A stretch of 64,000 bases of DNA. Origin: a virus (Duplodnaviria > Caudoviricetes). This document shows positions 29,586-29,740 of the stretch, piece after piece. The stretch spans positions 160,001 to 224,000 of IMG/VR virus record IMGVR_UViG_3300031555_003626. The stretch is one strand, 5' to 3'. Made by a program: the position numbers and the translations under genes. Position 1 is the stretch's first letter, and each line of letters opens with the position of its first letter. The notes below the pieces were generated by a model. That model did no database searches, was not told where the DNA came from, and saw nothing but the letters and a program-made list of their open reading frames with translations.

Positions 29586-29740
29586 GCTCCTGTGGCGGAA
29601 TAGGCAGACGCTGTGGACTTGTTTGAGTAGTTTAATGTAAAACAAGTCCGCAAGACTGATGTGAGTTCAAGTCTCATTTCAAGCACCAAAAATCCACTGC
29701 CCGTAAGGGCGTACCGGTTCGAGTCCGGTCAGGAGCACCA
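29586..29740 (+). tRNA. tRNA-Leu(UAA) interrupted at the anticodon by nested mini-tRNA 29621..29688
   Basis: Removing 29621-29688 restores GTGGA-CTTAAAA-TCCAC and a complete class II cloverleaf with CCA. Confidence 0.85.

Follow-up and report, generated by a model that had tools for sequence, protein, structure and literature searches.

The window analysed here is a stretch of 64,000 nt taken from an IMG/VR virus record of 233,329 bp, rated complete by CheckV; it covers bases 160001-224000 of the record, and its + strand carries all of its genes. Between the end of the gene for a 668-aa protein (26937-28943), which has no Pfam match, and the ORFs that resume near 36.9 kb lie about 8 kb occupied mostly by non-coding RNA genes, including 13 ordinary tRNAs. 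Four Rfam tRNA matches in this array are over-long, at 29586-29737, 30811-30944, 31447-31642 and 31861-32020. The first of these covers a tRNA-Leu(UAA) gene whose anticodon is split by a mini-tRNA, the candidate intron considered here. The coordinates of this gene and of the other features are collected in Table 1.

Table 1. Features of the window and of its genome referred to in the text (window positions unless marked as genome positions).
Feature	Position	Strand	Remarks
T4 Rnl1 homologue	genome 131804-132994		PF09511; PDB 2c5u, E 4e-14, residues 46-345
Protein with N-terminal Mtd_N (major tropism determinant) domain	9111-10865	+	
Polynucleotide-kinase-like P-loop kinase, 308 aa	25786-26712	+	Pfam AAA_33, 2e-25; PHROG 505 polynucleotide kinase, 6e-22
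YrlA-like modules (three)	29045-29460	+	Rfam YrlA, 43, 24 and 32 bits; gathering score of 69 not reached
tRNA-like sequence	29469-29575	+	uncalled by ARAGORN; partial Rfam tRNA match 29513-29567, 31.9 bits
tRNA-Leu(UAA) exon 1	29586-29620	+	acceptor 5' strand, D arm, anticodon stem 5' strand, C32 U33 U34
Mini-tRNA insert, 68 nt, candidate tRNA-shaped intron	29621-29688	+	MFE cloverleaf; matches Rfam tRNA and model R1
tRNA-Leu(UAA) exon 2	29689-29740	+	A35 A36 A37 A38, anticodon stem 3' strand, long variable arm, T arm, acceptor 3' strand, ACCA
tRNA-Gln(UUG)	30811-30947	+	split at 35|36 by a 63-nt mini-tRNA (30845-30907) with discriminator G and CCA
tRNA-Lys(UUU)	31447-31645	+	split at 35|36 by a 123-nt mini-tRNA (31482-31604) with enlarged middle region
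tRNA-Tyr(GUA)-like gene	31861-32023	+	variable arm enlarged by about 84-90 nt
RAGATH-33 RNA match	32042-32152	+	full-length, sub-threshold: 43.6 bits (gathering score 120.4)
Free-standing mini-tRNA-like gene, 73 nt	32265-32337	+	R1 31.8 bits (real tRNAs reach 48); MFE cloverleaf; no ARAGORN call
tRNA-like sequence	32959-33046	+	uncalled by ARAGORN; tRNA-Sec-like match 32959-33042, 30.9 bits
HNH endonuclease ORF	34071-34547	+	PHROG 14736, E 3e-22; in the tRNA array, overlaps the start of tRNA-Leu(UAG)
GOLLD RNA (Rfam RF02032)	35494-36007	+	156.3 bits (gathering score 150), full model; within the tRNA array

Joining the flanks of the Leu insert gives the loop CUUAAAA, which places the insert between U34 and A35. 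With introns allowed, ARAGORN reports a tRNA-Leu(taa) at 29586-29740 whose 68-nt intron begins one base past the first anticodon base, and exact deletion of the insert leaves a complete 87-nt type II tRNA-Leu with a 7-nt anticodon loop, again called tRNA-Leu(taa). An earlier, sequence-only reading of this DNA had described the insert as a mini-tRNA, and all the elements that it named were recovered, the minimum free energy (MFE) fold of the 68 nt being the cloverleaf described. The insert starts at +1 of a 7-bp acceptor stem (29621-29627 with 29678-29684, GTTTGAG/TTCAAGC), continues with a D arm (29630-29643, GTTT/AAAC), a shrunken third arm with a 4-bp stem and a 5-nt loop (29645-29657, AGTC-CGCAA-GACT) and a canonical T arm (29661-29677, GTGAG-TTCAAGT-CTCAT), and ends with the discriminator A (29685) and a CCA (29686-29688) that lies flush against exon 2. 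Scanned alone, it matches the Rfam tRNA family RF00005 at 35.9 bits (gathering score 29; E 8e-7; model positions 1-71), with 12 nt aligned to 17 anticodon-arm model positions. It is also the best match of model R1, at 75.6 bits on a scale where real tRNAs reach 48 bits, and its folding stability by itself is unremarkable (z -1.0). The insert is therefore a tRNA-like cloverleaf scoring above the Rfam threshold, lacking the 5-bp anticodon stem and the 7-nt anticodon-presenting loop of a decoding tRNA, and ARAGORN makes no tRNA call on the insert itself.

Two further genes of the array, tRNA-Gln(UUG) and tRNA-Lys(UUU), are interrupted by mini-tRNAs. ARAGORN sets their boundaries one base off and so misnames both, reading the Lys gene as Gln and the Gln gene as Glu; the Gln identity of the latter follows from U1-A72 and G73. 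The Leu and Lys inserts differ at 3 positions in their 3' 31 nt, which upholds the earlier view that they are kin in different tRNAs and at different anticodon positions (34|35 in Leu, 35|36 in Lys). The array also holds a free-standing gene of the same kind, with a 7-bp acceptor stem, a D arm (GCAT/ATGC), a 4-bp arm with a 3-nt loop, a T arm and ACCA; given this gene, mini-tRNA RNAs may have a function of their own.

The sequence-only reading had named phage and metagenome tRNA arrays as the place to look for further copies. Tabulated there by host tRNA and insertion position, the family comprises 21 distinct nested mini-tRNAs of 49-123 nt in large uncultured phages, lying at 34|35, 35|36 or 36|37 of six host tRNAs: Leu(UAA), Lys(UUU), Gln(UUG), Thr(UGU), Glu(UUC) and Asp(GUC). 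Because model R1 fails to separate nested mini-tRNAs from ordinary tRNAs, nesting was tested by a dedicated scan. A candidate was kept if a closing stem of 7 bp without mismatch was followed by one free base and the chosen triplet directly against exon 2, if the 5 bp of the host anticodon stem were all paired, and if ARAGORN called a tRNA on the spliced sequence with the junction within the anticodon loop. As a control, all 64 triplets were tried on 184,656 nt of loci selected solely by homology to the neighbouring 668-aa protein: CCA gave 12 matches and each of the 63 other triplets gave none. The expectation that the boundaries would fall at +1 and CCA in other copies proved correct throughout, 21 of 21 inserts running from the first base of a 7-bp acceptor stem to an N-CCA flush with exon 2.

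The 668-aa protein query retrieved 13 related IMG/VR loci. Orthologous tRNA-Leu(UAA) genes in these loci carry inserts at 34|35 of 102 nt (L002/L007), 67 nt (L003/L004) and 52 nt (L009/L013), and are without an insert in L005/L006, L008/L010 and L011; further interrupted hosts there are Lys(UUU) at 34|35, Thr(UGU) at 34|35, Glu(UUC) at 36|37 and Asp(GUC) at 35|36. Pattern scans found inserts on the unrelated 100-170 kb contigs L048, L090, L092, L097 and L109/L111 and on seven metagenome contigs within L143-L153. The same architecture thus recurs in independent assemblies, with the L147 insert differing from the Leu insert of the window at one base, and we reject an artefact or chance as its source. 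Among 185,579 prokaryotic species genomes an insert was present in one contig (L169, 166 kb), which was binned with a Paludibacteraceae MAG and carries the L097 insert except for one base. Just four IMG/VR contigs matched a stricter pattern, which indicates that the feature is rare and, within these scans, confined to phages. A loose pattern (T loop, CCA and AAAATCC) returned at least 117 loci, mostly ordinary tRNAs; in the genome contigs 82 of 83 were tRNA-Leu genes of the ordinary kind with AAAATCC behind them, which left L169 as the single true case. An exact-pattern scan of IMG/VR for the shared Leu/Lys 3' motif gave no matches, this motif being too specific, and among GenBank phages the interrupted tRNA gene had no relatives and the 668-aa protein had remote ones only. 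Five insert-bearing hosts with the anticodon UAA are class I tRNAs of 76-77 nt without the long Leu variable arm (L090 1799-1923, L097 2926-3073, L144, L148 and L169).

Covariation across homologues, on which the earlier reading had staked its case, is present in the acceptor and T stems: 9 of 12 pairs are changed on both sides, the acceptor stem having been a selection criterion for the inserts and the T stem not. All 96 of 96 cells are paired in eight diverse inserts, and the covariation score is 0.902, against 0.248 +/- 0.06 for shuffles and 0.13-0.18 for slid partners. These values come from an 8-sequence alignment (A2) and end-anchored counts, MAFFT of all 16 inserts having misaligned their 5' ends. 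The T stem is fully paired (5/5) and G53:C61 is present in all 16 inserts counted. Among the 21 inserts, the T-loop TTCRANT and U8 each occur in 19, and A14, the discriminator A and the G at +1 each occur in 17. The middle region varies. Its anticodon arm is degenerate or has been replaced, and the D and T arms lie 8-74 nt apart in those inserts that have a D arm; the two shortest, of 49 and 52 nt, have none and consist of little beyond acceptor and T minihelices. All conserved insert positions are tRNA positions, and the conservation of the top half and core beside a variable middle region points to selection on these parts of the tRNA and not on the decoding arm. The top half of a tRNA is the part read by RNase P, RNase Z and CCA-related enzymes.

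The host tRNA genes are equally well preserved. After splicing in silico all 21 are called as full tRNAs, and their acceptor and anticodon stems show compensatory differences between phages; the first anticodon-stem pair of the Leu hosts, for instance, is G:C, U:A, C:G or A:U. For Leu(UAA), Lys and Gln the interrupted gene is the sole phage gene, and in this phage the corresponding codons UUA, AAA and CAA account for 21%, 52% and 41% of the codons in their families. Since a split anticodon cannot decode, and since host exons and insert are both under structural selection, the Leu insert is most likely an intron removed from the RNA, as far as comparison of sequences can tell.

This intron was compared with the known classes. 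A group I intron shares with it the host gene and the 34|35 position; group I introns splice themselves, measure at least about 200 nt, have a conserved P3-P8 catalytic core and end in G, whereas the insert has 68 nt, no ribozyme core and a terminal A, and was rejected as a member on these grounds and because Intron_gpI was unmatched at E <= 5-10. The other Rfam intron and ribozyme families gave no match to it at E <= 5-10 either. As a positive control, the same search detected in L011 (5095-5365) a tRNA-Lys(UUU) gene whose anticodon loop holds a group I intron of about 190 nt, with a full-model Intron_gpI match of 40.7 bits (E 4e-9) that lies under the gathering score of 50; two intron types therefore occur at the same kind of site in this phage group. 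The archaeal and eukaryal bulge-helix-bulge introns and split or permuted tRNAs involve protein-dependent removal of RNA from the anticodon loop followed by ligation, and resemble the present case in the route proposed below. In a bulge-helix-bulge intron the splice sites lie in two 3-nt bulges with a 4-bp helix between them; such an intron was rejected for the Leu insert, whose 5' junction is the first pair of a 7-bp stem and whose 3' junction follows a single-stranded ACCA; across the family the junctions lie at the stem base and after NCCA, at the non-canonical positions 34|35 to 36|37. The tRNA splicing endonuclease PF01974 was not found in the phage and, to our knowledge, is absent from bacterial hosts.

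The sole precedent that we found in the literature is the set of 'enigmatic' tRNA introns of Lak megaphages (Devoto et al., 2019, Nat Microbiol, PMC6784885); tRNA-shaped introns are not mentioned in a 2026 jumbo-phage review (PMC13282480) or in a 2021 comparative paper (PMC7824862). The Lak paper notes that one of its introns 'may encode a tRNA', reports no Rfam match and proposes no mechanism, and it contains neither a covariation analysis nor a family definition (PMC6784885). Both sets are short inserts in the anticodon loop of large-phage tRNA genes, have a tRNA-like fold and no Rfam intron match, and vary in presence between close relatives; in both, tRNA finders set the boundary one base off and misread the anticodon, and the 3' splice site coincides with the position of the tRNA 3'-processing cut. 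Unlike the inserts described here, Lak introns begin with a 5' hairpin leader of some 26-33 nt, are without CCA, and end at the discriminator or at most 2 nt from it; the Leu insert of the window has no leader and is an exact mini-tRNA from +1 to CCA. Lak tRNA genes themselves are without CCA, as is the tRNA-like part of their introns (PMC6784885, Table S6). For Lak Thr(UGU) the authors moved the boundary by one base using an intron-less allele, so that the intron ends at the discriminator (PMC6784885), which is where RNase Z cleaves CCA-less precursors and parallels the CCA ends seen here. We regard it as confirmed that the feature is real, conserved and rare, and that no characterised intron class fits it.

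In all 21 copies the junctions coincide with both pre-tRNA cut sites, at +1 and after CCA. We therefore consider, with a probability of about one half, that the Leu insert is a tRNA-shaped intron released by an RNase P cut at +1 and an RNase Z-type cut after CCA, with an Rnl1-like ligase sealing the exons. The gene would be transcribed as a nested double cloverleaf. Host RNase P, invoked because the 5' boundary is exactly +1, would take the insert for a pre-tRNA and cleave 5' of G+1, leaving exon 1 with a U34-3'OH end; an RNase Z-type 3' tRNase would then cut directly after the encoded CCA and leave a 5'-phosphate on A35, this being the least secure step. RNase P and RNase Z products carry 3'-OH and 5'-phosphate ends, and a nicked anticodon loop with such ends is the natural substrate of T4 Rnl1. 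The two halves would be held together by the acceptor and anticodon stems while the phage Rnl1-like ligase seals the 3'-OH/5'-P nick, giving mature tRNA-Leu(UAA) with the loop CUUAAAA and a free mini-tRNA. With regard to the second cut, RNase Z of Thermotoga, E. coli, archaea and B. subtilis (the last with Co2+) cleaves just past an encoded CCA, this cleavage requires a prior mature 5' end, and in some bacteria CCA is inhibitory to RNase Z (PMC7479834).

RNase Z or other metallo-beta-lactamases, RNase P, CCA-adding enzyme and RtcB were not found among the phage-encoded proteins, so both cuts would need host activities. The phage does encode a homologue of most of T4 Rnl1, and homologues are present in the insert-bearing relatives G001, G007 and G010; the insert-bearing G009 and G012 have strong Rnl2-family matches, and G011 and G014 (complete and insert-bearing) have weak ligase-family matches only. 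Negative family searches on virus records carry little weight here, since the Pfam ligase search missed the G001 homologue that a protein query found. Two genes upstream of the RNA array lies the polynucleotide-kinase-like gene, whose product is a candidate RNA end-healing enzyme. Rnl1 and PNK also occur in related phages without inserts at the loci examined, and the pair is a classic answer to anticodon nucleases; its presence is accordingly not specific to splicing.

In a second reading the insert is again an intron, but another endoribonuclease, of phage or host, acts on the mini-tRNA. The resulting 2',3'-cyclic phosphate and 5'-OH ends would be healed by the PNK-like kinase/phosphatase and then sealed by Rnl1, as in the T4 repair of PrrC damage; for RNase P and RNase Z products healing enzymes would be superfluous. 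The position of the PNK-like gene two genes upstream of the array would agree with such an intron, as would the Rnl1-domain ORFs of about 760-780 aa that G002, G003 and G005 carry just upstream of the 668-aa gene and that are possibly kinase-ligase fusions (compare PHROG 8238), and the 5' leader of Lak introns, which places their 5' splice site beyond RNase P alone. We nevertheless judge it unlikely, because the exact coincidence of the junctions with tRNA end-processing sites in 21 of 21 copies speaks against another nuclease, because neither a candidate nuclease nor a tRNA-splicing endonuclease domain was found in the phage, and because the PNK/Rnl1 pair is equally expected as counter-defence against anticodon nucleases (PMC7824862).

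Somewhat less probable again is that the RNA is not spliced at all, the mini-tRNA being a selected product or a selfish insertion, and the host tRNA either disabled or a carrier that releases halves, for example as nuclease decoys. A free-standing mini-tRNA of the same design would suit such a role, the insert always splits the anticodon or parts it from position 37, and the Lys, Gln, Glu, Leu-UAA and Asp hosts overlap with what we take to be known anticodon-nuclease targets. Against this, the host exons are structurally complete, carry compensatory changes across many diverged phages and always form a 7-nt loop when joined, and a dead gene would be expected to decay where it is the only phage gene for heavily used codons. 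It is very improbable that the insert is a small ribozyme that cleaves or splices itself, or a group I intron in degenerate form. In favour of this, position 34|35 of tRNA-Leu(UAA) is the site of the cyanobacterial and plastid group I intron, L011 has its group I intron in tRNA-Lys, and for L046, L063 and L071 ARAGORN predicts introns of about 200 nt in Leu(taa) genes; against it, the inserts span 49-123 nt, end in A and not G, match none of the Rfam ribozyme or intron families, and conserve tRNA positions throughout.

Excision by RNase P and an RNase Z-type enzyme followed by ligation may be set beside several known systems. It resembles the T4 PrrC/Pnkp/Rnl1 system in the anticodon-loop nick, in sealing of the Rnl1 type, in the presence of an Rnl1 homologue and a PNK-like kinase in the phage, and in substrates that include tRNA-Lys(UUU); in T4, however, the host attacks mature tRNA at 33|34, whereas here the break is encoded in the gene, at 34|35 to 36|37, with extra RNA to be removed. 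In MALAT1 mascRNA, mitochondrial tRNA punctuation and rRNA-operon spacer tRNAs, a tRNA-shaped module likewise recruits RNase P and RNase Z. None of these modules is known to be nested in another tRNA, as the inserts are, or to have its flanks rejoined. The permuted tRNAs of red algae (PMC3728597) likewise depend on RNase P and RNase Z.

The sequence-only reading further held that the element had spread between tRNA genes, and this gained support from related mini-tRNAs in six host tRNAs, at three anticodon positions, in related and unrelated large phages. The inserts share the T-loop TTCRANT, U8/A14 and D-arm motifs; one of the latter, TAGCATAAGTAATGC, is common to the Gln insert of the window and the Lys insert of L005, which share a 15-nt D arm. 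L143 and L144 have insert cores that are almost the same, set in two different host tRNAs and closed by different acceptor stems. Orthologous tRNA slots are found both with and without inserts, and in the tRNA-Lys slot (window 31400-31700, L004 15566-15745) the flanks are nearly identical while the tRNA genes, one with an insert and one without, differ throughout, which suggests that whole tRNA genes are replaced like cassettes. The near-identical Leu and Lys 3' ends, the shared D arm, the L143/L144 core and the Lys slot thus support movement between tRNA genes. As the sequence-only reading proposed, the inserts may have arisen by ligation of a free mini-tRNA (5'-P, CCA-3'OH) to the ends of a cleaved anticodon loop, with later transfer of the product to DNA. 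Such an origin by RNA ligation would yield the observed +1/CCA junctions and fits the presence of an Rnl1-like ligase and a free mini-tRNA gene in this phage; no reverse transcriptase domain (RVT_1) was found in the 233-kb genome.

According to the received view, as far as we know, bacterial and phage tRNA introns are self-splicing and protein-dependent tRNA splicing is archaeal and eukaryal, and we know of no tRNA for which splicing by tRNA-trimming enzymes and an RNA ligase has been shown. More tentatively, and at somewhat less than even odds, the inserts may represent a new class of tRNA introns, the first in which the universal tRNA end-processing enzymes RNase P and RNase Z determine the splice sites and a phage Rnl1-type enzyme ligates the exons. 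Perhaps the class also arose and spread at the RNA level, through this ligase joining a free mini-tRNA into anticodon loops that host nucleases had cut. If so, protein-dependent tRNA splicing would exist in bacteria, built from enzymes that every cell has and a phage ligase; Rnl1 would have a constitutive biosynthetic role beside repair, and the Lak introns, called 'enigmatic' since 2019, would find an explanation. Standard tRNA finders overlook or misname such genes, and phage tRNA repertoires are consequently under-counted. The design also offers a ready model for placing RNA cargo inside tRNA scaffolds, to be released by RNase P and RNase Z.

In the MFE fold of the Leu precursor the host anticodon stem is not formed and exon 1 is engaged in a 12-bp helix with the third arm of the insert (29613-29652), where exon 1 and the first insert bases, GUGGACUUGUUU, pair with the D-stem 3' strand and third arm, AAACAAGUCCGC. 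This fold speaks against the proposed excision. A guide-like pairing between exon 1 and insert was rejected as a general feature, being significant in the Leu insert of the window and in L048 only (p 0.03 and 0.01; 32 tests), and the helix may be due to chance or act as a local folding switch.

Other parts of the array also depart from ordinary tRNA genes. The YrlA-like modules start right behind the gene for the 668-aa protein, have a permuted order, with the D arm placed behind a tRNA T arm and acceptor hairpin, and are flanked by a conserved bulged stem (..CCAATGCTTATTTCT.. / ..TAGCTTGGCC..). More odd stretches containing T arms occur at 30340-30470, and the GOLLD RNA contains a weak YrlA-like or permuted tRNA-like match of 27 bits at 35547-35692. 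The expansion of the tRNA-Tyr(GUA)-like gene is without a CCA-ended mini-tRNA and is conserved in the relative L004 (16044-16206); a normal tRNA-Tyr is also present at 33678-33763. Just upstream of the window, at genome positions 158430-158573, a tRNA-Arg(cct) is called by ARAGORN when introns are permitted; its 47-nt intron lacks a CCA end. The HNH ORF may be a free-standing homing endonuclease. Elsewhere in the window, the protein with the Mtd_N domain belongs to a family that we take to be the one diversified by retroelements in Bordetella phage.
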